Below are positions 4,102 to 34,151 of a DNA stretch of 34,151 bases, piece after piece. The first letter of the stretch is position 1, and the number at the start of each line of letters is the position of its first letter. The DNA lies in assembly GCA_049999805.1 (NCBI GenBank), contig JBNGIO010003129.1:1-34151 (forward strand). Reading direction: 5' to 3'. The stretch is from Folioceros fuciformis. Lineage: Eukaryota. Below the pieces are notes generated by a model, which was given only the letters and a program-made list of their open reading frames with translations, was not told the origin of the DNA and made no database searches. The position numbers were made by a program, and so were the translations under genes.

Positions 4102-5604
4102 ACCTTGAGTTATCAAGACTTAGGGTGGTTTTACATTAGACTGGTGGTGGCCTCGTGCAAGATAGCCATTGTCTAGACAGTCATAACGCGTTTTACATGC
4201 ACAGGTGGTGTCGTTGTCAGCAATCTGACTTGGAAATACCGTGGTGCCAATGTGGCCGGGTCTGACAATGTCAGATCCCCACCTACTCTTTGAGGCTGGT
4301 GGGGCCTGACACCCTTTAGTCCTGACAGCTTCCACCAAATGGACAACAACATCTGCACCATTGTTTACACGTGTGGTAGATTTTTCATTTTTATCTACTA
4401 GTAATGGTTGATTTACTATGATTGATAGGGTTTCGGTTGATGGGGAGTTCGTTTCCAATCACGACGCGGGTTTCCATTGTCCTTGCGCTAGCCTACATTT
4501 CACAAAGGTGGACCAGCCCGCTCACCATACACAAGACTCAATGATTGATGACGTCCCCCCTCAGCAGCCAGCCCCCTACCACACCCCAGGCATGGCCAGC
4601 AATTGTGCCTCCATCTTCGGGCTTGTAGCCCTTATTGGCAAGTTCAAATTTCATATGCTCGTGTTTCTCACTCCAGCTATGTTGTTGCAGCCTCCTTCGC
4701 CATACCTACCCCTCACCAATAGTGGAGAAATTTTGAGCCTCCAAACTCGGTTGTGGCTACGTTAGGTACTGAATAGGTTTTCAGTGTATTTGTTCAGTAT
4801 GGTTGACTCAACACATTTTCATTGCATTTGTCAGCTCTCGCAAGTTTGGACCCCTTTCGTCGAGCCTCCAACGAGTCCTTCCAAAACTATGTGTTTACTC
4901 CCTTGCATCCCTCTTTAGCCCCAAATCTGATGATGTATTCAGCCCCCCCTCCCATGCAACCTTTTGGTGTCTCCCCTCCAAATGCTACTATGCCCTTACC
5001 TTTTCCCATGACACTTTCCATATGTGTAGGCTCCACCCAGGCCATATGCAATATTTAATTTGGATACAACACTCCCTTCCTCAAACCGGGCCAGGAAACG
5101 TAGCTTGCTATCCAAGGGTGCGTCCAAACTTCTAGATACGTACATTGACCTTATGGAAAAAAAGCTAAATCCAAGGAGGAAAGTCCACCATATTGTGCAA
5201 TTGATACATGTCAGGGTTCATTAGATGTTAAGTTCAACAAAGGAAGAAAGCAAGGTGAGCATCTTAGGGTGTCGTGTTTGATTTATGCAACTTTAAGCTT
5301 CTAGCCTCAGGCTTCGTAACTTTTGGCTTATGCTTTTTGATGTGCAGGCATTGACATTTGGGGCAAAGTAGAAACTAGAATTTTGTTAATATTCTACAAC
5401 TTTGATAAAACTGCTGAAGCATGCCAACAAAAGTGGAAGTCCATTTATAACGAATACAAAGAGGACAAAGCAGCCAATGCCACTTCAGGGAATGCCAGGT
5501 CTGAGACTTGTTAGTGGTTTGATTTGGTGGACCAGTACATGCATTCAAGGGCTCATGTAGTTTGTTTGACACATGCCAATTTGCATAACCCGCTAGTGGG
5601 AGGT

Positions 5605-5775
5605 TGTTTGTTTTTATATCATGCATTTTTCTAGGAAAAAACATAATACAATAGAGAGTATATTTCAATTAAGTAAGAGCACTTATATACAAAACTAATG
5701 TGTCTTTTGAGTTTAATAGCTAACCCCTAGTTAAGTAACTAAGGTATAAACAATGTTAGGGTTTCACTCCTAACA
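5605..5775 (-). repeat. 3' LTR (171 bp)
   Basis: Direct repeat of 9590-9760, TG...CA, preceded on minus by PPT GGTTTAGTGGGAG. Confidence 0.95.
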
Positions 5776-5871
5776 CTCCCACTAAACCAACATAGTTTAT
5801 ACAACCATCGAAGGTTCACGAGCATCATTGTTGAACGTTCAGCGCAAAGTCGTACACTCATTAAACTCGGC

Positions 5872-6770
5872 ATGGAGCTCTTGACCTACTTACTCATATG
5901 CCGCGCTTGTTATCTGCTCAGCAAACCAATTCCTTGCTTAGACCTAAAGATGAAGACTCACTCCGGCGATGCAAGTCGCTCAGGAGCCTCCAACGGCGCC
6001 AGCCCCATTCAGAGTCCTCGGCGCATCAGTATGAAGAAAACAAGCAGCAACAGTGGAAGTGGAGCAAGAGGTCGTTCTGCAACGCACAGAGCAATACACC
6101 AAGTTGCTATGGCTGCACTTGAAGCCCTACCAATCGACGAACGCCTTCCAATGAGAGCCCTACCATCAGCCCCAGTAATAGTCGATCCGGAGTCTTCAGA
6201 GTCTGAACCCGAAATGACCCACGTCGACGAGAACTCGGAAGCTAAGGAAGAATTCTCCAGCCACCATGCCGGAGAAAAAGAGGTAGCTCCCACTATATCT
6301 GTATTGGAGCAGCAAGTCGCAACTATCATGGCAACTCTGGCAGAGATGGAGGTGCAACTAGATACGAAGAAGACTGAGGTGATTAGGCAAAAGGCAGCTC
6401 TGGTTGAAGAAGCCGTGGCAAATTCAACTGCAGCCGCCAACAGAGCATTCTTCGACATAGCTAGGACAAGCGAGACTGTATCATGTGCACGCACTGAAGC
6501 CGTCTATGCCTCCTTTGTGGGAAGAAGCTTAAAGAGGTGAGCTTCTTAGCTAAATCTACTCCACGCCATGTCTGTGTTTTGATTCCAAGTTCTAGCTTCA
6601 TCCTCCATACATGCATGTAGATACGACTAACCTATGACCTGACCTTCACTTGCAGGATGGCAGTAAGCCTGAAGCTGCTCCTCGTCATATCAATGGTAGT
6701 GGCCACTAAGTTGCACACATACTATGTGAGAATATCAGCAATCTTCAGTTTCAGCCATAGACCTGCTTAG
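5872..6770 (+). CDS. Antisense accessory ORF of the Copia element; unknown protein with a disordered/acidic N-half and a coiled-coil
   Basis: Uninterrupted 222-codon ORF 5872-6540 (second ATG at 5950). Candidate intron 6537-6655 (GTGAGC…GACTAAC…TTGCAG) would add an exon ending at TAG 6768-6770. Confidence 0.6.
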
Positions 6771-6775
6771 AACAA

Positions 6776-8555
6776 TCAGTTTGATTTCTTAGAGTAGCTG
6801 AACTCCTTCAGACCTAAGGCAGACATATGCTGAAAATGCTTGGCCTTTGTGAGCCCTTTTGTGAAGATGTCTGCTGGATTTTGATGAGTGCTGATATATT
6901 GTATCTTGATAGCTCCTCGCTCTGCTACATCCCGGATATAGTGATGGTACAACTCAATATGTTTTGTACGTGCATGAAACCTAGGATTAGAGACAAGAGC
7001 TATAGCACTCAGATTGTCACAATGAAGCAATGTAGGCCCTTTTTGAGTTTGATTTACTGACTCTAAGAATTGTCGTTGCCATTCAGCCTCCTTGTAGGCA
7101 TCTGTAAGAGCTTTGTACTTTGCCTCAGTAGAGGACATGGCAAGGGAGGTCTGCTTTTTACAGCTCTAGCTAACAGATCCTAAGGACAGCATGAAATAGT
7201 ATGCCGACAAGCTCCTTCGAGTGTCAACATCAGACGCCCAGTCAGCATCAGCATAAGAGATAAGTGTTAAGCTGTTGCTCCCACTGAATGTGTAGTGTAG
7301 ACCATACGAGATGGTTCCTTTAAGGTATCTATATATGTGTTTACCAGCTGCCTAGTGTAACCATCCAGGTTGTTTGGGAAATTGAGAAGCCTGACTGACT
7401 GCATAACTAATGTCTGGCCTTGTCCAGTTGGCAAGAAAGATCAAGCAACCCAGAGTTTCAGCGTAAGGCACAAGACTCAAGTCAGAAACCTCATTCGGAC
7501 TCTGAGGCAACATAGCTTGTGTCAACTTCTCCCCCACAGCTGATGGTGTGGTAACGGGACGAGCTGCATTAAGATTGAAGCGTTTCAAGATTTCCTTAAG
7601 GTACTTGGTCTGATGGAGTATGATCTAACTGGCTTGCCTGTTTTTAAGGATCTGAATTCCCAAACAAAACTGAAGTTCTCCCTGGTCAGTCATTTTGAAC
7701 TCTTTTCGTAATACGCCTTTAACTTTGTCCATCTGACCTATTAAAATCCTAGTAGTAGGATTGCATCTAATCTAGCATGATTAGGATTGCATCTAGTCTA
7801 GCATGATCAAGATGCAATGCTGAAAGAGATATTTCGTGTTAGTCTTTTAAAAGTGTATACAAAGCGTGTCTTAAATAGTGTCACTAGGTGTCTCTTCCGA
7901 AGAGGCACACCCGTTCGTAATTATTAAATACTGTTAATTACGGTCTACGGTAACTAGCTGGTCAGCAAGGTTACGAGCAGATTATCCATTTCGTAACATG
8001 ACCTAGGTCATTACTGAGCAATACGCAGTCATCGACATACAAGGCCAAGATGACAAACAAGGCTCCGGAAGACAGAGAGAAGACATTGGTATCCACTGGA
8101 CTTTGAAGAAAACCCAACTTATAAAGGTACTAGATAATTCTTTTATACCAAGCTCGGGGACTTTGCTTTAATCCATAGATAGTCTTCAGCAAGTGACATA
8201 CTTTCTGAGCATCCTTCTTACTGACAAATCCTTCTAGTTGCTGCGTATACAGAGTTTCCTCAAGTTCACCATGAAGAAAAGTAGTGCACACATCCATCTA
8301 GTGCACCTCCACGTTGTATTCAGCAACCATCGCCAGCAGAATGCGAATGGAAGGGGGCTTAACCACCGGGGAAAACGTTTCACCATAGTCTATTCCAGGT
8401 ATCTGGCTGAACAATCTAGCTACTAATCTGGACTTGTAGCGGGCAATAGTCCCATCAGACCTCAAACTTGGTCTTGAAGACCCATTTGCAGCTAATAGGT
8501 TTTCTTCCAGCTGGTAGGTCAACAAGCTCCCATGTTCGATTATTAATAAGACTGT
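6776..8555 (-). pseudogene. Copia reverse transcriptase + RNase H, degenerate
   Basis: Motifs TWELVDLP, YKSRLVAR, IDYGETFSPV, YGLKQSPRAWY, LYVDD, TRPDISYAV, YADADWA, SSTEAKY, CDNLSAI, RTKHI, NPADIFTKGL. Several stops and frameshifts. Confidence 0.95.
7739..7998. mobile_element. Solo LTR (260 bp) inserted in the RT just downstream of YVDD
   Basis: TGACC TSD at 7734-7738 and 7999-8003; ends TA(=TG mutated)…TAACA. Removal restores YVDDCVLLSNDLGQMDKVKG. Confidence 0.85.
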
Positions 8556-8889
8556 TATTATTTATTATTATATATCTTTAATTAATATTAAACTAATCAC
8601 TAAACCTAGACTCAAACTTTCCCAACCCTATGGCCCGGTACCGGACCTAAACTTTCCCAGGTCTGGAACCAAACCTGTACCCACTCTAATAACCAAACCA
8701 ACTATTTCCTAGTTAATTAACCTAATTAGTACAAAGAAAAATAGGAAAAATGACCAGAAATTAAAGAAAAATTAGGGAAAAGAAGTAGAAAAAGAAAACC
8801 AAACCATACCACTATTAACCCTTTTCAACCGAAACAAACTACTACCCCAAACTTTGGAGGTTCAGAAAGCACATTGGGCTTTAATAACC

Positions 8890-9468
8890 CTACACTTCTC
8901 TCGTAGGAACAAGTGTTCCCAGATACAATGCCGCTAATGGCTGCAATCCAAAGATTGGGGCTGTAGGATTTTTAATTGAGGGATTAGAAATATTATTTGC
9001 CACTGAAAGCATTTCTTTCCGAACCGCTTCAACGTCAGTAGAGATTTCAACTAGGAAGGGTGAGGTGTTCGCCACAAAATGCACCAACACCGATTCCAGA
9101 ACTTCCAGGCGCCTCAATATTCTATCAATTGAGCATGAATTGGTGGAGAAATACTGAGATTCTGTAAAATTCTCCACTCCAATGTCTGAGGATGACCGCA
9201 CATCATCGTCGCCATCTCTTTGCTGAAAACGTGATAGGATTCTCTCCATATGAGTTTGAACTCTGTTCTCATAATAAGTGGGATTAACCAACGCCTGTTC
9301 AATAAAGAATCTGCGCATACTAGTTCTCAATTCATCTATGTGTAAAATCTAGCCTTCAGAGATCAAATCATTATAACATTGTAGAATATATTGATCCCTT
9401 GATAATCTAGAAGAAGCTGACGATAGTGTTGAATTTCTATCATCTCGTCTACCATTTCTTTTAGTCAT
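8890..9468 (-). pseudogene. Upstream accessory ORF ('ORF0') between PBS and the deleted gag; 192 codons with one internal stop
   Basis: ATG at 9468 gives MTKRNGRRDDR…EG*ILHIDE, in frame with ORF 8890-9330 ending PLAALYLGTLVPTREV. Homologous to 29772-30342. Confidence 0.75.
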
Positions 9469-9577
9469 ATTTCAAAGAGAAGATAGCTATAATTCATTTA
9501 GCTATAATGATGATTTCTAGATCAAGCATTGGAAACAATTGCCCAACCTAGATACTAGACAAATAATCATCATTAAT

Positions 9578-9589
9578 GCTCTGATACCA
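9578..9589 (-). promoter_or_regulatory. Primer-binding site (tRNA-iMet)
   Basis: TGGTATCAGAGC on minus, immediately after the 5' LTR. Confidence 0.95.
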
Positions 9590-9760
9590 TGTTTGTTTTT
9601 ATATCATGCATTTTTCTAGGAAAAGACATAATACAATAGAGAGTATATTTCAATTAAGTAAGAGCACTTATATACAAAACTAATGTGTCTTTTGAGTTTA
9701 ATAGCTAACCCCTAGTTAAGTAACTAAGGCATAAACAATGTTAGGGTTTCACTCCTAACA
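9590..9760 (-). repeat. 5' LTR (171 bp)
   Basis: Direct repeat of 5605-5775, followed by the TSD. Confidence 0.95.
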
Positions 9761-10271
9761 GAGGTTGCAGTTCCAGTAATGTTGATCCCGAAGTTGACAT
9801 TGCAAGTGCTAATAGACAAAGTAATGGTAGCAAAGCTTTTAGTGTTGGAAATAAACCAAGTTAGCTGTTGCTTTCGAGGCAAGTTATGTAAATAAGGCTA
9901 TTCAGTCCATGGACAACATGATAGCGGAGATGTCTAGTAGGGAGGATAGGAAGCTTGCACTACTAGAGACGGAGATATCTAGTAGGGAGGATAGGAAGCT
10001 TGCACTACTAGAGACGTTGGTTGCAGCACTAGTGCAACGCAATGAGGATAGCTACAATTCTATGCTGTAGAATTGTGATCGATTTGTTGTTTAAGCCTTG
10101 GACAAACTTGAATGACATAGACGTTTAAGACAAGGCATGTTCTGGATTGCACACGTCGTGGACGGCTATCTTAAAAGTAACATGCTCTTATTTCATATTC
10201 TTCACCATCCCCCTCTACCAAATAGATGCCCCTACTTGCAAATAGCGCAAATGCAAGAAGCTCTTGCTTTC

Positions 10272-11609
10272 TCATTCCTTCACGATACCCCCTGTGTCAA
10301 ATTCAGCTCCATCAAGGGGTGACATGGCATCCTCCTGCGGTGGATGGCTTGCATCCAATCGAACTCGGTGGAGCAAAACTAAAGCATCATGTGCTGCCAA
10401 TGCGGCTTGCCTTTGTGGATTGTCCGTATATGTACTCTCCACATCCAATTGTAGTTCACACTCTGTAGAAGCTTCCTGCAGCTGTTCTTCTTGAAATGTA
10501 TCTTTATGTATGATATAGATGTTGTGTAGTAATAAATAGGCTTGGACTACCCTGGGCACATTTGCAATGCTAATATCTACACGCTTCAACAAGCACCTCC
10601 ATCTTGCCTTCAGGATGCCAAAAGCTCGTTCTACTCCCAATGCTTTTGCACAGGTGTCAAGCCATCACGAGAACCACGGAAAGGAGTAAGCAAATACAAT
10701 ATGGGTCAGTACCCTGCATCACCAACCAAACTATAGTGGCGTAGCATGCCTCTTTCACAGTTACGACCCAATCTTGTTCTCTTAAATAAATTCCGATCAT
10801 TCATACTACCCGCCGACCCAAAATTGTAATCCCAAATAATGCATTTTGCAGTGACAGTAAGTTGGAGCAGATCATTCATACTACCCGCCGAGCCAAAATT
10901 GTAATCCCAAATAATGCATTTTGCAGTAACAGTAAGTTGGAGCAGCTGCGAATAAAACCCTTTTCGATTGTAGTAATCTGCCTTGGCATGTGGTGGGCCA
11001 AGAATGGGGATATCAGAGCCTTGTAGTGCTTTAAATGCTTGAGAGTACTTGCATTGCATGTCGAGGCTAAGGCCATGAAATATAAATAGAGTGCAATTTA
11101 GTGACAAGAGCAGCACAAAAGCCCTGCGTAACATTTCCAACAGTAGAAGTGCCGTACCCAAACAAGTCACCAATGGTTCGAAGCTTATCACCTGAAGCCC
11201 ACTGGTAACGAGCCATTACCACTTTCACCTCTACTGGAACCGCTTTGTAGAATTGAGTATCGGCTATGAACACAGATGGCCCCACTTCAGCACAAATGTA
11301 CTGAAATGTGCTCTGGTTTACATGAAGACGTTGTTGACACATTCTATCTCAAAATGAGAACACTAGCTGATGTTCCAGATACCCCTGATGGCGCTTGACT
11401 GTCCAAGCAAATTTTCGTTTCTTGGAGGGCTTCTGGATAGCAATATTCCTCTTCACAATACATGCTAAGACAATACATCCTAAGAGGATAGCACATGACA
11501 CAAGGACGGTATTTGTTAATGTTGAGTCCACAAGCTCCATCAGAATATAAGCGGTAAGTGCGGCTTCAATTTGGTCTCGGCCCATTTGCTGCAAGACACA
11601 CAGAGACAC
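10272..11609 (-). pseudogene. Harbinger/HARBI1-type DDE transposase, degenerate
   Basis: Fragments RLHVNQSTFQYIC, ASGDKLRTIGDLFGYGTSTV, YYNRKGFYS, GSAGSMND, LVGDAGY, VERAFGILKARWRCL, LLHN. Stops and frameshifts; the GAIDG segment appears deleted. Confidence 0.9.
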
Positions 11610-13473: not shown

Positions 13474-14905
13474 TTAGAGACATTTCACTACTGCAGTTGG
13501 AACGTTTGCTAAACGTGTGACTTCTGGTAACGCGATATCTTGCCAGCCTGTTATGATGCAAAGCTTTTTCATCAACGCCTGGTCAGCAGGCTCCGCTGAC
13601 CATTTGGTGTAATAGTCTTGTACTCTGAACACTGATTCGGGACCTATAGGAACGCCTTGTGCTCCCTTAAGAAAAAGGTCACCTTCAGAACGTATGCAGC
13701 CAGACGCAGGTTCGCTTCTGTCTGCAGCCTGCATGTCTCTAACGTTAGGCAATCATGGAGACCCCAAGTTATTGACTGAGAGTGTGCGTGGTATGGATAC
13801 AGACCTTTTCGGTGTAGTATTCAAACGCTTTTTTGTTGGCACCGGCCTCGTAGATGCAAGCTTCAGACACAATCTGTCAGCGGCAGCAAGATGGGTTGAG
13901 TCACTACATGCAATAACTGCGCGAGAAGGCCCATGAAGTTGAAGATGAGTTTATTACCTGAGCTTCTACACTGGCACACACAGCGTAGATTCCCCAATTT
14001 CTGGTGTAGTTGTTGTAGAGGTGCACTTTGGCAAACCTGACCCGAGGATGCCTCTGCCTTGTGCCGTCGAACAGGCAGTGATGGATGGTTATCCTCATGC
14101 AACGATCCTCGACATGCGTGGGATCCGCCCCGATGAGCATAGTCTTATCGTGATTGAAAAAGCGGCACCTGCGAAGGGGAGTGGTGCGAAATATGTCACA
14201 TCACACCAGCCTGGGAGTGTAAAGTAAAGGAAAGGAACAGAAGGCAGGAAGGCGAACCAGGTTTGACCTGGAGACGGTGATATCGGTGCACTGACGTGTG
14301 ATGTCGATCAAGCCGTCGTCGAAATCGGACAGCGTGCATCGGTCGATCCAGATGTGACTGGAATTAGGCTTCATCTGTATGCCATCCACATCATGCCCAC
14401 GGCCCGCCTCGAAGAGCAGGTTGCACACTATGACATGCTGGCACTGCTTGAGCTGCAATCCTTTGCCGACAATCTTGATCTGCTGGCCACGCCCGTCGAT
14501 CGTCTTGAAAGACGAGACTCTGAGGTAGGAATTGAGGAAGATGGTGCCGGAGACGTGAAACACGATCCACAGCGGCTCCGTCTTCCGACACGCCTCCCGC
14601 AGCGTGCCCGCGCCGTCGTCTGCAAAATAGGGAAGGTGCACCAGTGAGCTGGTAGGCAAGCGGGCAGTCCCAGGCAGCTGCAGCAAGGCAAGGTAAGGCA
14701 GCTCTGTACCGGCAAGGGAGGTGACGTAGAAGAGCGGGCCTTCCAGCCCGCCGATGGCCCCAGCGCCGAAGCCCTCGGCTGCCCCCGCCAGGTCCCGTAG
14801 GCCATCTGCATTGCCACCCGCCATGCTCTGCTGTTGATGCTGCTTCGTCTGTTTTAGCTTCTGCTTGCCGGACGCGCTGAAGAGGAGTCCGCAACAGCGG
14901 CCCAT
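13474..14905 (-). CDS. Pectate lyase-like protein (PL1 family; 360 aa, 5 coding exons)
   Basis: Exons 14905-14710, 14619-14268, 14168-13958, 13873-13805, 13728-13474 (1083 nt). Motifs AEGFG, GTLREAC, KTIDGRG, IWIDRC, DGLIDI, HDKTMLIG, QRHPRVR, VHLYNNY. Confidence 0.95.
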
Positions 14906-15272
14906 GGTAGGCTGGAACTGGTGACAACTGCACCTGGCGGAAAAAGTTAGCACATGTATGTACATGGTTCGTCTACGACCATGAGAAATTGACTTTCACG
15001 CGGAAAAGGTTTACGGTGTAGGTAGATGGTACGTATTAGGGTATAAAATGACAGAACAAGCCGATGATTGACATCAGGCAAAAAGGACCCGACCACGCAG
15101 AGAAGGGAGGAAGGAAAGGACGGAGTTTGCTTACGACGAGAGCCGCTGTCGTTCCCTTGCCTTGGCGTAGAGCGCAGCCTTGTGTTGCGTTGCGTGGGCT
15201 CGCCGGGGGCCTGAGTGAGCGGGCGCCAGGCGGGCGCGTTTCCGTTGCTGCAATCGGTAGGGTTTTCAACCC

Positions 15273-15830
15273 ATGGCCTTGCTGTTTGGTCCACCAGCGG
15301 GTGGAGGCGCCGGGGGCCGCGCCGTGGATCTGGCTGACTTCATCGAGTGGGGTTCCGTGGAGTGTCTCAACGAGAATCCGAGCCATACATGGGCTAATGC
15401 GCTGAAGCAGGGGTACCGCGAGGACGGCAGCCTGCATCTCCAGAGCTTTGCGGATGAGCAGCTCTTGCTCCACATCCCCTTCGCGCAGGTGGTGAAGCTA
15501 CACTCCCTGGTGGTGAAGGGATCTCAGGAGGATGGCCCTAGGACGCTCAAGCTCTACGCCAACCGCCAGAGCATGGGCTTCAGCAACGTGGCCGACTTCC
15601 CCGTCACCGACACCGTGCTCTTGTCGCCCTCTCACCTGGACGGCTCACAGCCCCTGGCTCTCAAGTATGTCAAGTTCCAGAACGTGCGCAGCCTCACCAT
15701 CTTCGTGGAGGACAACCAGGCTGGATCCGACGTCACCAAGCTGCACAAGCTGGCCATCTTCGGCAGCTTGGTGGAGACCACCAACATGAGCAAGCTCAAG
15801 GACGTCAGCAGTGAGAACGCTGATAAATGA
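15273..15830 (+). CDS. PITH domain-containing protein (185 aa, single exon)
   Basis: VDLADFIEW…VECLNE…[10 protein letters not shown]…VKLHS…[10 protein letters not shown]…[20 protein letters not shown]…TTNMSKLK. Confidence 0.93.
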
Positions 15831-16265
15831 ATGATCCTTCAGGCCAGGCTGCACCAAATTTTCCATTGTCTGCAACCACCTGCCTCCTCCATGCTTGCCT
15901 GACCCCGGGCTCTTATGTGTATTTCTGGCCCATTATGATTGGCCTCCCATCCTGCAACGACCGCTGGTGCGTTTGTTGCAGAAAATAGTCCCTTGACCCA
16001 GCGGTTTATTACACATTTTTTGTACACTCCTCAGCGTGAAATTCAATATGTCGATTGCACAACTTCAGTGCTGTTGTAACAATTTGATATCTACTTCCAA
16101 ATAGTGTGGCCTAGCTCGCTAACATCATACGAACCGACAACAGTCCAATAAATCTTCGCAAGCAGTTCTCGTTCTGTATCAAATACTGTCCTCTGCCACA
16201 TACTGAATCACAAACTGACTATTGAATCAGGAATGGCACCGATACGTCTCCCGCATCCTACGCAC

Positions 16266-17031
16266 CTATGCACAGCAGCCTTTGCTCTTGAGTTTCGAAG
16301 GTTGATCATCTGAAGGGAGATGGATCTTAGTCCCAGACAGGATAGACGTTGACACACTACCCGCATCGGCTAGGAGAACCTTCTTGCTCACTATCCTGTA
16401 AATCTCGGTAAGCACAGTGTAAAAGGCACTCTCCACGTTTGTTGCCTCCAGAGCGGAAGTCTCTATGAAAAAGAGCTTCTCCTTCTCAGCGTACTCCTTG
16501 GCATCTTCCGTGGGAACCGCCCTCAGAGTCCCCAAATCTGATTTGTTCCCGACCAACATAACCACAATGTTGGAATCAGCATGAGCCTTGAGCTCCTCCA
16601 ACCAGCGTTGGACATGATCAAACGACTGCCGCTTTGTGATGTCATAAACTAACATAGCACCTACAGCTCCCCTGTAGTAAGCACTCGTAACAGCCCTGTA
16701 CCTGGCATCACAAGACGGAGCCAGGTCAGTCCAATTGCTTGACCTAAACAGCTTAGCTTAGCAACCAGGCAAGTGAGCCAAGGGGGGACAAGAGAATCAA
16801 CAACCTTTCTTGACCAGCTGTGTCCCAGATCTGCGCTTTGACGGTTTTATGGTCTACAACCACAGTCCGAGTCTGGAATTCCACTCCGATGGTAGCTTTG
16901 GACTCCAAGCTGAATTCCCCGCGTGAGAACCTGGTGAGCAACTGTGACTTGCCGACTGCAGAATCCCCAATCAGGACTACCTTGAAGACGTAGTCGATCC
17001 TGTTTTCGAACTCCCCGAAACCATTCGACAT
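16266..17031 (-). CDS. RABA4: Rab11-family small GTPase, RabA4 subclass (220 aa, 2 exons)
   Basis: Exons 17031-16805 and 16701-16266. [50 protein letters not shown]-terminal CCA prenylation motif. Confidence 0.95.
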
Positions 17032-17328
17032 CGTTCGGGCGGCGAGTGATCGGGCAGCGCCGGAGATCTGGTAGTTGCAGTCACTTGAGTGCGACTCTGG
17101 TCAGCATTTTCAGCCGGCAATCAACCGGTGGTTGATCTTGCTCAGGACTTCTCCAACTGCACACACCCTGGAAGCTCCGGCGCATCTTCAGCCCGCTGCA
17201 GTAGTAGCGAACTGCGGTTAGCCTGTGTTAACCTGCCATACATACATACACAAATACATACATACCAAAGTCACTTTGGTATGTATGTATGTGATAAAGC
17301 ATCGCTTACACTGGATTGCCAGCTAGCG

Positions 17329-25173: not shown

Positions 25174-26122
25174 CTACTCGGTTCGCAGCTGGGCTTCCCG
25201 ACTTGTGAGCGGAACGTATCGGACCGAAGTTGCTGTCCACTGGGACAGAGTGCCATCTGCGAGCTTGTCTATCACCCTCAAGTCTTGGAAACTGTCACCC
25301 ACAGGGATGACCAGGCGACCTCCGGCCTTCAGTTGATCGATGAGCGGTTGCGGAATCTGGGAAGCAGCAGCAGCACCTACATGGATGGCGTCGTAGGGCG
25401 CCGAAGAGGGCCACCCTTCCCGACCATCTGCGGCCACCTCCCCAGGGGTCAGGACACCCGAATTCCCAATACATGCCCAAGTCTAGTGACAAAGTAAAGA
25501 GACAACCTGCAACGTGGAGTGAGAGGCGGCCGGAGTTGAGCAGGTCTGCAGCCGGAGTCTTGGCAATATTATCGGCAGCCAGTTGCACCAGCTGGGGGAT
25601 GTGCTCCACTCCGATCGCACGTCCTTGCTCCCCAACCAGCAGGGCAAAAGCAGCTGTCAGGTATCCCGTGCCTGCACCATAGCATAATACAAAACCCCGT
25701 TGAACCCTGCGACAGCAACACGCTAACCAAACGTCAAACAAGTTAAGACCGACGGCAACCTGCGCCGACATCCAACGCTCGCATCCCTGGCTGTAATTGT
25801 TTCTCCAGCAAATCCAAGCACAAGGCATGCATGTGTGGGGCAGATATGGTGGCGTTGTATCCGATAGGGATCGGACTGTCTACGTAGGCCAGTTCACGCT
25901 TGTGGACGAAATCAGCCCTGTCCAGTTCCTCCATAACGCTGGCAATCCGAGGCGACCGTATGGCAGAAGACAGCTGCAACATCTGCACCAGTGATTTGTT
26001 GTCCACTGCTCGTCCCCTCCAAAATTGCTGCCAGGCCATGGCGGGCCGTGCCTGTGTCAGGGTGTGCAGATTTCCCACCGTCACTCTTCTCCACAAAATT
26101 GTACCGGTCTGTTTACCTCCAT
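25174..26122 (-). CDS. PIMT: Protein-L-isoaspartate O-methyltransferase (230 aa, 4 exons)
   Basis: Exons 26122-26117, 26027-25760, 25671-25507, 25427-25174 (693 nt) give MEQFW…ATISAPHMHA…ALDVGAGTGYL…GVEHIP…APYDAIHVGA…LKAGGRLVIP…VRYVPLTS. Confidence 0.95.
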
Positions 26123-28670
26123 GCTGCAAACAAAACGCAGCGCGGAAAGCCTCAACCGCAGGACCTGGGGACCCTCGGCCTCCGGTGAGCCTCTTGGCGA
26201 ACAACTCCCCTTCTGGCCTGGCTTCGACTGCGTTCCCAGACGGGCCCCACGTGTCCCGAATGCAAGACACCGAAGAGATTTGTCATACTGTGTATGGTTG
26301 TATCGCACATTCATCCGCCAAATTCTTTGAGTACCTAGCCACACGGGTAGCCTAGGGTGTAAGATATACACGTCCTGTTCCAATAATCGCAAGCATGGAG
26401 ACTTGATAAAACAGAAGAGACGGAAATCCTATCCACCCCGGCCCCCGCACGAAGGGGAACAACCCACTGAAGGGCAAGAGCCAGAGCGGGCCAGTCCCTC
26501 GCCCTCGGCCAAAGATCTCAATCAATAAAATAATATCTAAAAACGAAAATCTATCCATCACGAATGTAATGATCTTCGCAGCAAAGGCACTAGGCCATGC
26601 CGATGAAGAATATGGAAGGAGATGAAGACGGTCGAGACTTCTCGAGACCGGCACTCTGACTGTGATTTCCCTGGGCCTGCCAGCTCTTTCTGATTGCCAC
26701 AAAGAACTCACGAAATCATTTGTTTTGCCACCTTGGTGAACTCGACCATTGCCTCGTCCATCCCAACCCCGTATGCAAGGTTGAATTAGGGATTTGCCAC
26801 CATCTAGCAAACCAGCGAGATTGCAATTGTCCAGCAATCAGAACATGAAGTCCAGCAGGAATCTAAGCACGGATGTTCGAACCAGAAAAGCAAGGTCTTG
26901 CAAAAATGTGGAGGTACAGCTGCAGAGACCCATGCTGTGCTCACCAGGGCGATACACAGACTGGCTTCATCTGTTTGTCGGTGGTCGTCGCACATGCAAT
27001 CAGGCTCAAATCAAGGACGGGAAGAGGGAAACGTGTCGGTGCATCTAAGCATGGTCACAAAAAGTAACATACCCGTTACATTTTTTATGTAAACTGGCTG
27101 GCTAACGGACATGCAAAATGCGGACAACTCCGTTATGGTTGGACAAGCACAGGATACTTCCACCCCTGGGCGCCCTTGACTGTCGCACGGGCATTGTTCG
27201 ACAAGCCCTCCTTATTGGACTTCAATAAAATTTTCCTTATCAAAGATACGGTCGCCTGTAAATTTAAATATTGGCTATTGCACAAACCACACTAAGGATA
27301 CTTCCAAAACACTCATATTTTTGCATTTTTCCTCATATGCAAAGACGATGTGCGTCCTTCATTCAAGTGAAGCTGAATATAATGTTTTTGAATATTACTT
27401 TAAAAAGTTGAATCTCAATTTAGTTAAGTATATATGTAGATTTTTAAGCTTAATAATTTATTTATTCAATTCAAAAATATTATTATAATATTCTAAATTT
27501 TTAAAATTTTAATAGGTTTTAACATATGTCTGTATTTTATGTTGCACTATAACACCCTAAAGAGAATTCTTTTACTTTTACCTTAAATATTAAAAGATAT
27601 TTATTAAAAATTCATCAATATAATTGATATCTTGTTGTTGTGTACCAACTAGTGGATACAATGATAAAGCTTCACATAACTGGTACATGTGGACGAGATA
27701 TTGTGGCCATGTCAATCCTACGGTCGTTGTAGGCTTCCCTAAAATAGCTCCCTTCAAGTCTCGTTAGCTCTCTCCAACTACATCTATCATTCACCAATGC
27801 ACTCCCAATTACATACCTACCAATCCTCCAACACGTCCAATCAACATGAGGGTACGATTTCCTCATTTAGAAAGACCCTAGTAAGCTACCTACCGATTTC
27901 TACCTTCCTACACTCAATACCCCTTTCCCCACAAGGCTCCCTACAGCACCTTCCACAACGATCCAGCTGCTTATCTCCCTACATCTGACATTACTCCCAA
28001 TTATCAAACACCACAAAGTCCTTTGTAATCAACAACAGAAAGGGCACTCGCATCTCCACCATCCAATAAGATGTCATCTTCCAAGTGCTTTCTCAAGTCC
28101 CCACCCTTCCTCTAACATAAACCTCAAGCTCACTAATTCCATATCACCCTCACAACACAACTTCTTAGGTCTGTTCTAAACCAACAAGTTTTTCCTTCAG
28201 CCGATTGTTGTGTGTTTGCACTTGTTAGTGGGGATCTCTAGCGAGTCTTTCACTATAGTCTACCCTTAAGGCAACAATCATGTAGGTATCGTCATACACC
28301 CACAACAAAGCAACTCACACAATAACCATTCACAAGGGAACCAACTTGCAGGGGTGCCCCTAAAGAATATGAGCCCTCCACCAAGCACTTCAACCATTGC
28401 AACTCTTGCCACAACCAAGCGCTGTTATGGCACACAGCTGGCACCGAAATCCCTACTCTCAATTGAGGATGAGAACTCGCTATGACAAGAGTGCACAATG
28501 TGGTGGTTCATTTCTTTATGTAGCCCCTTCTTATAGGATAGCTCGACATATAAACCCTTCTCCACATGTAGAAGGTGGGCTTACCCTCCTCTCACACTAG
28601 CCGCCACAAACTTCAATACACATGCCTATCAAGATACTAAGGCCTACCAATAATCTACTAGGGCAATGGG

Positions 28671-29290
28671 TGTAGGGTTCTTAAAGCCCAATGTGCTTAG
28701 GCTAATGTGTTTAGTCTAAGATTAGTGTCTAGCTAATGTATCATTAGTTTAGATTAGCTTAAGCTAATCTGTAGGAAGCTTCTTGCGCAGCTTCCTGTGA
28801 GCTTCTTGCGCAGCTTCTTGTGAAGCTTCCTAGGGAGCTCTTCTAGAGGGTATAAATACCCCCTTGAGCTCCCTTGCCAACCACTCTCAATGTGACCTCT
28901 TTTTCTCCTCTCCTCACTGCCTCCTCTTCTCCTCTCCTCCACCATGCTCTCTAGTGGTTCTACAATGGGCACCACTAAAAGTTGGGGACCGTCGAGGCCG
29001 CGACAAGGGATTCTTAGGCCCCCCTCCAAAAGGGAGTGGCTAGGATTGTTCCAAAAGGGAGGCTGGGTTTCAGCTAGGTCCTCTTCCATTCTCTTGGATC
29101 CGTGAACTTCCACCAAACCTTGCTTTGTGGTCATCTCTTAGGTCGTTCCTTCATCGCCACCAACAGGGTCACCCTTGACGTCCGTAGAAAGGGGCTGGCT
29201 TGTCTTTTAACTCGAGGAACTCCTCCCTTCGGTGAAGGGTTTGTCTCCCTATGATCCTCCTCCCTACATAGGGTGAGGATGTCCCTTACA
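28671..29290 (+). repeat. LTR-like sequence (~620 bp)
   Basis: TGTAGGG…CCCTTACA termini, TATAAATA at ~28851, internal AGCTTCTTG repeats. No TSD found. Confidence 0.5.
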
Positions 29291-29771
29291 ATTCCCATCG
29301 TCGATATGTTTCCTACATTTGTAGACTCTCTACCACTTCCTTTTCATAGGTGGGGTCTCTATATAGAGGCCTTCCCCTATAAGTGCCTTCCCTACGTAGG
29401 TATGTTCGAGGCTGTTGGGATAAAACTGTACCATAGCTTATACTACAATTAATATACTTCAGTTAAGTGGTTAACCCAAGAGACACATTAACAATTTTGT
29501 ATTTAAGAACACCTTTCTTTTTATTAATCATTGCTTTTGTTTTACAAGCAGTGTTTATTAGCATGCTATCAGAGCACGAGCTCTATCGATCCATTTAGCC
29601 TGATTCTAGAATGCTGTTAGCATAGATAATTTATCTAATCACATAATACACAATCTCTCTCTGAGAAATGTGTGATTGTGTGGCTAGTAATTCATCTTTG
29701 CCTACACTCTAGATAGTGTTAGTATATTCTAAATTAAATGGGATTGTAAATGAGTCTGTGGATTCTACATC

Positions 29772-30342
29772 ATGACGTGGAGATGTGGGCGACGTCATGA
29801 TGAGCCCTTCTCACAATTTGTGAATAGGCAGCTCAAGAATCGTCCACAACAAGTTGAGCATCAAGGCGATCGGCGGTGTGCGCATTCTTAAGGCTAGCGT
29901 TGTCACTAGGCATCACCTCCTCTAGTGAGAAGATCCCACCAGCTCAACTTGGGGGAGCGAGCCCCATTTCCGCGCCCCCGCAACACCTGCAAAAGAATTC
30001 CCAATAGATTGCAACACACAGACTCAACATTAGATCTCGAAGGAAGGTTCAGTACCTGTGGCTCAATACCGGATCTCAAGCTGGAAGCTTTGCGCATGAG
30101 TTACCAGCGCTGAGAAGATCCTTCTCGCAGAAGTCTGCAGAGGACAATCTATGTTGCTACAGCAAGGAAAACGCCTACTTATGGTGCACGATTTGCTCCA
30201 GAGTGTTCAGAATTCACTCACCGCCCTCACCTTGAGATTGGAGCGTGCTGAAATTGGACCTAAGTCTGCACAAGCACCGCTGGTTGCCACCTACCTGCCG
30301 ACCTTGGTGCCTACACGCGAGGAGCCATCCATGACATCGTAG
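29772..30342 (+). pseudogene. ORF0 homologue (~190 codons; several stops and one frameshift near 30110)
   Basis: ATG at 29772 gives MTWRCGRRHDE…; central GRFSTCGSI; ends …PLVATYLPTLVPTREEPSMTS*. Confidence 0.7.
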
Positions 30343-30627
30343 TGTGGGCGATCAAATCTGTAGGGGCCTGCCTCAATTCGGGATCCCAGCTTCAATCTTG
30401 GAGGGGGATCGCGCGAGTAGGCGCAGCAAGCGCAGCGCCAACGGCACTCAGCCAGACCCCAATCAGCACCTTCGCCTAGGTTGATGTTGATGAGTCCTTT
30501 GACCTGTCGCAAAATCATGATCACTTGCAACGTTTCATGTTAGTTTGCACGTTTTCGTATCTAACCCTAAAAACAGCATTGTCGAAACGTCACGTACCTC
30601 TTTTAGATGTCGTTTCGTTTTCTCTCA

Positions 30628-32900
30628 TGTCGTATGACTTGGATTGGCTGTTTGGGGGCTCTGATAGTGACTTAGATGAAAATTTAGCCATAGACGTTTC
30701 CTTTCTTCAATCCCTGCAGTCTCAATTTCTTGCATTCAACCCTCCACCACATCAAGGGCTACCACCTCCTCTTAACATGGGTATCGTTGCTCAAGTCGAC
30801 ACATATTCTGGTGAATTCAAAGAAAAAGATCGGTTTGATGACAAACCTATTAACTACGAGAGCTGGAGAGCATAAATGCAAGCAAACCTGAATGTGAGGG
30901 ATGTTTGGGAGTACGTCGATGGCAGCATCGCCAATCCACACTTGGTCCCATCTACAGCTGCAAACCAACCAACAGCATATGAGAAGGCGAAATGGGACAA
31001 AGGGAACAAAGTAGCTTTTGCCATCTTGCTGTCTAGGCTAGATGTTACAACTGTCACTGAGGTTGAGTTCCTGGACATAGCACAAGAGGTCTGGACTCAG
31101 CTCAAGGACACGTACAAGGTACAAAATGTGTGTACCTTGATGAATCTGCGAAGTGATTTCCACTTGTTCAGGATATGGGAAGGAGACCCCGTGAGACCAG
31201 GAATTACCAAGTTGAGGCTTCTGCGAGCGCAATTGGCTGGGCTAGGTGCCAAGATCACAAAGGTCGAAATGGTTGCCCAGCTGTTTACTGCCTTGCCGTC
31301 ATCCTATCAAATGTTTATCTCTGGACAGAATTCGGCCTTCTCTACAGCGTATGCTACTGCTGCTGCGAATCAACCTTATAACCTGAACTTTAAACACTGT
31401 TGTGTTTAGGACTCTCCTGCAAGAGGAAGCCAGCAGACACAAACTAGGTCAGGGCTCTTGAGCAAGAGGTGAAAAGGTTCTTTTTGCGGCAAAAGGCAAG
31501 CCGTTTGTAAAGTGAAGGGGGAAAAAGAAGACTCACCAGTAGCCCAGCGCTTCTGGTGGCTCGAACTCATCTCTCTCCATCAAACGGCAGGGTATATGCG
31601 ATTGGTGCCAAATTGCTGGTCACTAAGAGAGGAACTACCGCAAGAAAAAGGCTAGAGAACCAAAGAAGGATCCTCGACCTGAAGCACATGTTGCTGCCAA
31701 GGACAAGGGAACTTCTCCACACAAAAGAAGCTCGATTGTCCTAACAGTAATAGTCTGTTTGTCGTCGTCTGTTGATCCGTCAGACTCTTGGTATATAGAT
31801 TTTTGTGCTATGTCTCACGTCTATAAGAAAAAAAATCTATTTTCCACAATCACAACAAAAGTCCTAGCATAGTCACTTTATGTGGGGGACTCTAGATGCA
31901 TAGACGTACGTGGAATGGGTACTATTACCCTTACCTTGGCTGATGGGTTTGAAATCCTGCTCGATGATGTCCTCTATGTTCCTGCCATGTCGAACAATTT
32001 GCTGTCAGTTAGAGCAGCCACTCAATTTGGAAAGTATGGTTTCTCCTTTGAGCAGGGCAATTGTTGCTTGTACGACCTATCCAGACCTAGAAAGTGTGTT
32101 GCTAGAGGTCAGTTGGTAAATGAGCTATATCAGTTAAACCTGTCCACTGACGCAGAAGCTTATGTTACCTCAACCACCTCTGAAGCAAGTCTTTGGCATG
32201 CTAGGCTTGATCATATGAATAGGGAAAAGTTGAACTTTACGTCTTCACTAGACTATTACAGGGAGAAATTGCCCTCCTGTTTCAAGCAACTGCCTGCCTG
32301 CCAATCCTGTGTCCTCTCAAAGCAGAAGGAGCTTCCCTTCAAAAACAAGCAGGCACAGAAGGCTCAGGCAGTGCTGGAACTCATACATGCTGACATTGCT
32401 GGCAAGCTGCAAGTTAAGTCACTGGGTGGAGCAGAGTATTATTTCACCTTAACGGACGATTACTCTTGCTACACTTGGGTGTTCCCACTTCGCCTCAAGA
32501 GTGATGCTTTCAAGTGTATAGAAACATGGATTTTTATGGTACAAAGACAAACTCGCAGTCTAGTGAAGTGCTTTTGCACCGAAAACAGTGGAGAGTTCGT
32601 TGGTCTCCAATATGATGTGCTATTTGCAGCTCATGGGGATCATTCTCTAGCTTGCCATTCCTTATACTCAACAGCAAAACAGAGTAGCTGAACATAAGAA
32701 CAAGACCCTGATGGGTATGACAAGGAGCATGCTTGGATGGGTGGGTTTGCCCAAACAACTACTAGGCAGAAGCCCTTACAACTGCAGCCTACATACTTAA
32801 CAGAGTTCCGACAACTTCAGTACCTGGCAAAACTCCTTATGAGACGTACTGGAAGAAGAATCCCAGCTTGCTGCATCTGCGGGTGTTTGGCTCCACAGCA
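30628..32900 (+). pseudogene. Copia gag-protease-integrase, degenerate
   Basis: NYESWRA*MQANL…VWEYVDG, AQEVWTQLK, LPSSY, knuckle CDWCQIAGH, WYID protease remnant, DVLYVP..NLLSV, LWHARLDH…CQSC, LELIHADI, DDYSCYTWV, VFGSTA. Confidence 0.92.
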
Positions 32901-34151
32901 TTTAGAAAATACACTCATACTGGAGAATTGTGGAGGCAAAACCCCGGGCACTAATTGCCGATGGGTTCCACCTTTAGTGGCCACACTTATCCCACTATCG
33001 TTGAGACATTGGGTTCCGTTCCCACGAATGAGCGATGGGGTTCCTCGCTGCTGTGGAAGGAGGGTCGGACTCAATCGACTCAGTGATGGATTCGAGGGCT
33101 CATCTCCAGCTCCAATCAGGCGTAGGACAGGCCTCACTGTCCAGCGGTCAGCTGCACCTCTCTCGGTGCCCACAAACTCACTTTAGTTACTACAACGACC
33201 CTAACCTCTCGGATCTGCGACTTCCCTCACTCACTTTACTCGCTCTCTCACTCCAGCACCAACACCAGGAACTAACAACGACACCACTACCTTCTACACT
33301 TCCCTATTGACTCCTCCTACTCGGCAAGAGCCACTAGACTAACCCCCAAGAAAAGAAAGAAGGGAACACACTCCCCTCTTGGATATCTCCTCTCCACAAC
33401 CTTACCAGACGCCATGAAACATGGCCGGCCTACAGTACTTGTACAAACAAGGAACAAGAGTGGATAGGTCGAGAGATAGACACATCCTTTACAATCAAGA
33501 GCTAGGGGCAAGCCCCTTCACCCTGGTCATTACACCTTGTGATCCTACCAGACACTGTACAACCGGCAACATGCGGCTTGCGATCCTACCGGACATTGCA
33601 CAGCCGGCAACACACTGCAAGTCCTAAACCAAGTAGGGACAGACCACAAGAGCTCATGTAGAGAGTACCTCCAAGAGCTCACGAAGTGACAGACTGACTT
33701 CCAAAGTGAATGACTACCTCCTTCTATAGGCTCACCTGATCTTATAGGAGCCTCTCTCTAACTTGACAAATATTATTTTAATAGGACCACTAGCCTAGTC
33801 GGTTGTCACTAGCCACTTATTTAGACTTCTAGCAGATCCTGCCACCAATGAGCTGGCCCTACCACCACAAGGATCTACCACCTCTTAGACTATCCTGAGA
33901 CTTTAGAGGATGTCTGATCTTCAAAGATCTACGGACGCCGCCTCTTCCTTGCTGGATGGCCGCCCGCTAAGTCTTCCACTGTGGTTGAGCCAACTTCCAG
34001 GGGAGGAGTATGAGTAGTGGGAAAGATAGAGAGGAGGTAAGAAGTAATGGGATCAGCAGCCGGAACCTGGGCTGAAAACGGTACTTATTCAGCGGAATCA
34101 ACTTCCAACCGAAATGGTTCCTCGGCCATGAAACACTAACCCTGGGGTGCT
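32901..34151. mobile_element. Unrelated repeat, probably an LTR, inserted into or truncating the Copia integrase
   Basis: Abrupt loss of the Copia frame after VFGSTA. No recognisable ORF follows; composition is LTR-like; the right end is not in the window. Confidence 0.4.

Follow-up and report, generated by a model that had tools for sequence, protein, structure and literature searches.

The window analysed here, a stretch of 34,151 nucleotides from the Folioceros fuciformis contig JBNGIO010003129.1, contains two diverged Copia retrotransposons, each of which opens shortly after the primer-binding site (PBS) with a reading frame of about 190 codons, and the question raised by this locus is whether that frame is a gene of its own, the beginning of Gag, or no gene at all. 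Copia elements are regarded as structurally uniform, with gag-pol filling the interior and extra coding capacity described mainly for SIRE, according to the accessible text of Neumann (2019). The earlier note on this locus proposed a conserved extra gene, ORF0, in both elements. Our analysis leads to the conclusion that the frame, at the 5' end of the elements, is a real and conserved coding module specific to one Copia lineage, most likely part of Gag, and that it is an uncommon form of known LTR-retrotransposon architectures and no new kind of system.

The first element (e1) is encoded on the minus strand between two long terminal repeats, the 5' copy (9590-9760, 171 nt) being 98.8% identical to the 3' copy (5605-5775), and a 5-bp target duplication, ACCTC, is found at 5600-5604 and 9761-9765. 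Its PBS, TGGTATCAGAGC, was read directly at 9578-9589, beside the 5' LTR, and presumably matches the 3' end of tRNA-iMet. This identity agrees with the part of Neumann (2019) that was available. The LTR pair, the PBS next to the 5' LTR and the 5-bp duplication are those of a Ty1/copia element. The conserved frame extends over 8896-9468 and comprises 191 codons with a single in-frame TAG (9351-9349), versus 7 and 22 stops in the two other frames, at 39% GC. The polyprotein is represented in e1 by a remnant of reverse transcriptase (RT) and RNase H (6809-8535, minus strand), which is 45-52% identical to Copia polyproteins and is damaged by five in-frame TAGs, a frameshift near 8455-8465 and a 265-nt insert (7737-8001). 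Similarity to Copia polyproteins starts exactly where the RT domain starts (window position 8535, residue 912 of 1401 in the relative P0007) and ends with the end of RNase H at 6809; gag, protease and integrase are all absent from e1 in the polyprotein comparison as well as in Pfam, which recovered RVT_2 and RNase H only. This element is a dead deletion derivative that kept LTR, PBS and 5' coding region and lost gag, protease and integrase, and it was presumably mobilised in trans.

All six internal in-frame stops of e1 are TAG (9351, 8300, 8132, 7627, 7354 and 7168, minus strand) and five of them are preceded by C (CTAG), while the TAG trinucleotide is not over-represented. A reassignment of TAG was considered and rejected, since three of these codons fall opposite Trp (two) or Gln (one) residues conserved in P0007; random decay explains the pattern less well than C-to-T change at methylated CWG sites. 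Over 5500-9900, nearly every difference in run X3 is a C>T (236) or a G>A (194), an appearance that suggests bisulfite conversion of the DNA and not sequence variation. Run X4, the one guessed to be RNA, has no contig over the bins of the 5' frame. The 265-nt insert interrupts RT just past the YVDD region and is missing from a paralogous contig, where 7736 is joined to 8002; its bins have a depth at least 10-fold above that of the neighbouring bins. In contigs of two runs from one sample, position 5599 is joined to 9761, omitting e1 and one ACCTC copy (4161 nt). This joint, in which the letters between the joined ends are marked "not known", fits an empty site and points to polymorphism or heterozygosity of the e1 insertion, which lacks gag. 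In the interval from RNase H to the 3' LTR of e1, the antisense strand carries a frame (5743-6540, plus strand) of 265 uninterrupted codons at 49% GC, the product of which is acidic and helical-looking; a contig about 84% alike covers this region, and neither a Pfam match nor a usable ESM Atlas match was obtained for it. It is reminiscent of the antisense 3' extra ORFs reported in Grande, RIRE2 and Retand, although its host element is a Copia.

The second element (e2) is on the plus strand, with a 5' LTR of 151 nt (29413-29563) followed by a PBS, TGCTATCAGAGC (29564-29575), that has one mismatch to that of e1; the element is truncated past about 32950 and hence retains only the 5' LTR and the PBS at its borders. 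Its 5' frame is now in two parts, the first (29772-30110, mod3=0) running from MTWRCGRRHD to FST with stops at 29889, 29895 and 29907, and the second (30100-30342, mod3=1) carrying PLVATYLPTLVPTRE at 30277-30321 and a TAG at 30340. The shift from one phase to the other falls at about 30100, and the reading path over 29858-30010 is uncertain, since frame mod3=2 is open there too. Next come an ambiguous stretch of 158 nt (30322-30479), in which the gag frame has one stop (30477), a pre-gag coding stretch of 99 codons in the gag frame (30480-30776), with no stop and no Pfam match, and the canonical gag (30777-31409), which begins with an ATG in the context aacATGG, has an in-frame TAA at 30873 and matches Retrotran_gag_3 and gag_2 (PF14244, PF14223) from about 30798. 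A protease/integrase remnant follows (31627-32954), recognised by Pfam as Pol_BBD, gag_pre-integrs and a weak rve. The Copia domain set gag-PR-IN-RT-RH is thus covered by e1 and e2 together, and in full by neither copy. In e2 the 5' frame is a sense ORF between PBS and gag. The general decay of this element has left eight stops on its reading path, five of them TAG.

The placement given in the earlier note, a frame between PBS and gag in both elements, therefore stands as to the frame of about 190 codons, present in both, and as to its position in e2, and fails for e1, which has no gag. That both copies are disabled was borne out.

The window has the look of plant nuclear DNA, and other features surround the two elements. 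Remnants of a PIF/Harbinger DDE_Tnp_4 transposase (10272-11215, minus strand) adjoin e1 and include a 76-nt tandem duplication, 97% identical (10795-10945). Host genes lie close to the transposons (14201-17100 and 25295-26282), namely a pectate lyase fragment, a PITH-domain gene, a two-exon Ras-family GTPase and a protein-L-isoaspartate O-methyltransferase. Rfam and tRNA scans of the window returned nothing.

Only three things are common to e1 and e2: a 35-nt stretch of the LTR promoter region, 80% alike between the 5' LTR of e1 and 29473-29507 of e2, the PBS, and the 5' frame. The latter is a real coding stretch with a conserved ATG, located 109 nt past the PBS in e1 and 196 nt past it in e2 and preceded in both by A at -3, and with a shared start, MTxRxGRRxD. 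As described before, the N-terminal decapeptides are MTKRNGRRDD (e1, 9439-9468, minus strand, located by codon comparison with e2 and by pattern match) and MTWRCGRRHD (e2); they agree at 7 of 10 residues, four of these seven being written with different codons, and both frames contain FST. Towards the other end, the motif PLxAxYLxTLVPTRE is represented by PLAALYLGTLVPTRE in e1 (8940-8896, minus strand, the last native codons before a break) and by PLVATYLPTLVPTRE in e2, and the codon comparison confirmed that 12 of 15 residues are identical and that 10 of these 12 use different codons. Between the two elements, the first, second and third codon positions of the motif differ at 5, 3 and 13 of 15 sites. 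Residues kept despite different codons imply that constraint acted on the protein and not on DNA or RNA.

The two frames are also collinear, with distances that agree. In e1 the spacing is 106 codons for the initial Met to FST and 85 for FST to the final Glu of the motif; the corresponding values in e2 are 92 codons and 91 codons plus one base. A semi-global alignment of the two products scores 57, against 10.5+/-5.2 for shuffled sequences, a value reached by none of 1000 shuffles (z about 9), and the block from FST to the motif still gives z=4.05 (0 of 2000 shuffles) once the motif itself is removed. With tblastn, the e1 frame finds e2 as its sole match in the window (E=0.003; 2.8e-4 in the reverse search). 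Degenerate DNA patterns for the decapeptide and the motif each match just the e1 and e2 sites in the window, with chance expectations of 0.01 and 0.00 for patterns that were built post hoc from these same sites. A further contig, from run X2, is about 83% alike over 8977-9503.

These observations bear directly on a reading in which there never was a functional protein, the similarity having come from a non-coding leader or packaging sequence common to both elements, from an ORF open by chance, or from a piece of a host gene picked up by transduction. Such a reading can draw on the poverty of relatives. No match to the e1 frame came from a word-indexed protein search, and an exhaustive phmmer search of 1.84 billion representatives yielded no credible homologue; two bacterial RTX/cadherin repeat proteins were discarded as spurious, as they score through 5-7 repeated weak matches. 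Similarly, no piece of the frame belongs to a Pfam family, nothing below E=0.8 was found among PDB sequences, the ESM Atlas gave no usable match to the e1 frame, and the metagenome and viral contigs scanned held no confirmed relative. The single-sequence AlphaFold model of the frame is helical but unreliable (pLDDT 43.6), and the stretch between residue 11 and FST shows no significant likeness between e1 and e2 (z=-0.08). Against this reading stand the saturated third codon positions of the motif with positions 1 and 2 kept, the single stop in 191 codons at a GC content that leaves 7 and 22 in the other frames, the conservation of start codon and decapeptide, and the collinear alignment, and none of the searches lends support to a host-gene origin. 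We consider it very improbable that the frame encoded nothing, and highly probable that it is coding and of common descent in e1 and e2. The comparison of the two sequences supports its description as a lineage-specific coding region, once under purifying selection, that directly follows the PBS in both of the diverged Copia elements, and this part of the earlier proposal of an accessory protein was upheld.

The lineage itself is poorly sampled. The RT-RNase H remnant of e1 retrieves 416 Copia proteins at E<=1e-10, the best of which is 52% identical, and a blastp comparison of all pieces of the frame with 120 of these 416 RT relatives, taken from the matches listed, gave nothing below E=0.4. 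The pre-gag and gag segments of e2 likewise found no longer protein at E<=1e-5.

Where does the protein end? In the earlier note the motif PLxAxYLxTLVPTRE was a short C-terminal interaction motif, a position that closer inspection of e1 did not bear out. Immediately downstream of the frame, on the minus strand, 8560-8895 is a highly repeated foreign sequence of about 335 nt that replaces gag, protease and integrase in e1 and supplies the final Val and TAG of its frame. The summed depth of contig words, which is no copy number, reaches 1e4-1e5 over this segment, versus 15-35 in the bins of the 5' frame, and this was seen in three DNA runs. The first 29 nt of the repeat recur at 28670-28698, a position 700 nt upstream of e2. 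The segment, whose end at 8560 is A/T-rich, also occurs in contigs of X4, the presumed RNA run, and probably represents a short non-autonomous repeat of very high abundance. The junction, at 8895, falls one base past the Glu codon of PTRE. As the final Val and the stop are repeat DNA, the C-terminal position of the motif is unsupported; moreover, since native e1 sequence is broken after PTRE, the similarity between e1 and e2 had to stop there, whatever followed originally. The end of the e1 frame is thus an artefact of the repeat junction, and nothing in it marks a native stop after the motif.

What followed originally can be sought in e2. Between the motif and the gag ATG (30322-30777), the gag frame has one stop in 151 codons, versus 10 in 152 and 12 in 151 for the other frames, and it is nearly open over 30264-31409, with two internal stops. 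Codon scoring, with a table trained on 592 codons of e2 gag, protease and integrase, gives +6.4 for 30480-30776 in the gag frame versus -44.7 and -48.8 in the others. Being open and coding-like, the gag frame indicates that Gag coding reaches back from the canonical ATG by about 100 codons or more, to within 158 nt of the motif. Over these 158 nt the score is negative in all three frames (-9.6, -21.1 and -11.8), the gag frame being the best. The two ATGs within the pre-gag stretch (30537 and 30627) stand in weak contexts, with no purine at -3. One further argument for continuity, the shared phase (mod3=0) of the first ATG of the 5' frame and of gag, was dropped, because e2 carries indels and the agreement is uninformative.

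We therefore favour, with a probability of roughly one half, the reading that the frame represents the first 190 or so codons of an N-terminally extended Gag (gag-pol) polyprotein in one deep Ty1/copia lineage. Translation would begin about 110-200 nt past the PBS, where the genomic RNA has its first AUG that opens a long ORF, and the conserved AUG would occupy the usual start position of Copia gag. The product would open with the Arg-rich decapeptide, which may serve in nucleic-acid binding or as a nuclear signal, and would continue through a fast-evolving, mostly helical region to PLxAxYLxTLVPTRE, which may be a site of protease processing or host docking inside the polyprotein; a poorly conserved linker of about 150 codons would then lead to the canonical gag domains, so that the N-terminal extension of Gag would total about 335 residues. 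Continuity across the 158-nt gap of e2 is presumed in this scheme. For e2 to read from the first ATG into gag, one indel within 30322-30339 and the reversion of the stops at 30477 and 30873 are required, lesions that match the rate of damage elsewhere in e2 and are thus compatible with general decay.

Several findings count against such an extension. A TAG (30340) stands six codons past the motif in e2, the motif and the pre-gag stretch are in different frames, the 158-nt gap scores below zero in each frame, and the ATG at 30777 has the strongest context, which would suit an independent start of gag. In addition, in the three closest full-length RT relatives among the matches listed, the gag domain starts at residues 1-25, and none of the 120 relatives compared resembles the 5' frame. 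Precedents were looked for in six Copia polyproteins, two of which have 180-240 residues before the gag domain; both are weak, one being low-complexity and the other looking like a read-through.

Some of these findings are also what a separate 5' accessory gene would lead one to expect. Under that reading the frame encodes a protein of about 190 residues that ends a few codons past PLxAxYLxTLVPTRE, gag is translated independently, with reinitiation, internal entry or splicing giving access to a start further downstream, and the frame is the Copia counterpart of the 5' additional ORFs of the Gypsy elements Tekay, Retrosat-2 and Ogre. The stop of e2 soon after the motif, the lack of a clear coding signal in the following 158 nt and the context of the gag ATG all fit it, as do the predicted helices and the lack of homologues, which correspond to the profile of the Gypsy 5' extra ORFs. 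On the other side, the stop of e1 is not native, which leaves one degraded copy, e2, to back a stop at this place, and for about 100 codons or more before the gag ATG of e2 the gag frame is open, looks coding and offers no good start codon. Besides, an upstream ORF of 190 codons would block scanning ribosomes under scanning initiation, which counts against a separate ORF0. We regard a separate gene as possible and somewhat less probable than a Gag extension. In its fullest form, namely that a deep plant Ty1/copia lineage encodes a separately translated 5' accessory protein of about 190 residues with a conserved Arg-rich start and a C-terminal docking motif PLxAxYLxTLVPTRE, kept even in the gag-less non-autonomous e1, the proposal is more doubtful still. 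The "extra gene" of the earlier note has accordingly lost ground, given the nearly open gag frame over 30264-31409; and a separate ORF0 is no likelier than the outcome that the note itself had named as speaking against its proposal, namely that the frame simply forms the N-terminus of gag, since the gag frame of e2 is open upstream and the e1 stop is foreign.

Extra ORFs at the 5' end have been described in Gypsy lineages, in the accessible portions of a review (Vicient and Casacuberta, 2020; PMC7264820), of a study of sunflower Tekay (PMC11728184) and of the report on Retrosat-2 ORF0 of rice (PMC3485330), where they appear as fast-evolving, helical or disordered products with basic nuclear signals and no domains (PMC11728184; PMC3485330). 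As far as these texts could be consulted, the 5' additional ORFs (5'aORF/eORF-5'F) of Tekay (sunflower Tekay 13-2, rice Retrosat-2 ORF0) and of Ogre are, like the present frame, sense coding regions between PBS and gag, lineage-specific and fast-evolving, devoid of known domains, endowed with helices and a basic N-terminal patch, and conserved within their lineage (PMC11728184; PMC7264820). This likeness lies in the descriptions, and the same excerpts show differences: those elements are Gypsy, their ORF is separate in intact copies and it is longer (about 400 aa in Tekay 13-2), whereas the frame reported here belongs to Copia, has about 190 codons and may be part of gag.

Within Ty1/copia, the nearest comparison is with Sireviruses (SIRE), whose Gag is enlarged to about twice the usual size, 660 versus 330 aa, by an additional helical or coiled-coil segment for which binding to LC8 proteins of the host has been reported, in the passages available of PMC2829016. 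There, however, the extension lies downstream of the zinc knuckle (CCHC), whereas the frame of e1 and e2 is N-terminal to the gag domains. Sireviruses are also about 10 kb long with large LTRs, in contrast to the LTRs of 151-171 nt found here, and neither e1 nor e2 shows the Sirevirus combination of large size, an env-like ORF and a Gag extended past the CCHC knuckle. Among retroviruses, glyco-Gag of murine leukaemia virus is made from one RNA by an upstream start that adds an extra N-terminal domain before canonical Gag; with its non-AUG start, its shorter extension and its role in membrane targeting, it provides an analogy only.

The survey underlying REXdb recorded 582 Copia elements with extra ORFs, in 45 similarity groups and several position classes including 5' forward, and its main text, in the portion accessible, treats only the 3' forward ORF of SIRE (Neumann, 2019). 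The threshold stated there for an extra ORF is 250 codons, so that a frame of about 190 codons would have escaped listing. The survey left out, according to the part of the text at hand, extra ORFs that stood apart from the polyprotein region in certain elements and belonged to it in others, and we counted this for the reading as a Gag extension. A partial literature search, made by title and by the start of abstracts, found no account of a conserved sense 5' frame in Copia.

The frame has no bearing on a long-standing open question, and both copies described here are dead. If it proved to be a separate 5' accessory protein, it would be the first sense 5' accessory gene described in Copia. Whether fused or separate, a conserved coding module preceding the gag domains would be a new protein component in the biology of Copia; its two short invariant motifs lend themselves to tests of protease processing, nuclear import and host-factor binding, and the frame would be a useful marker for classifying a poorly sampled Copia lineage.
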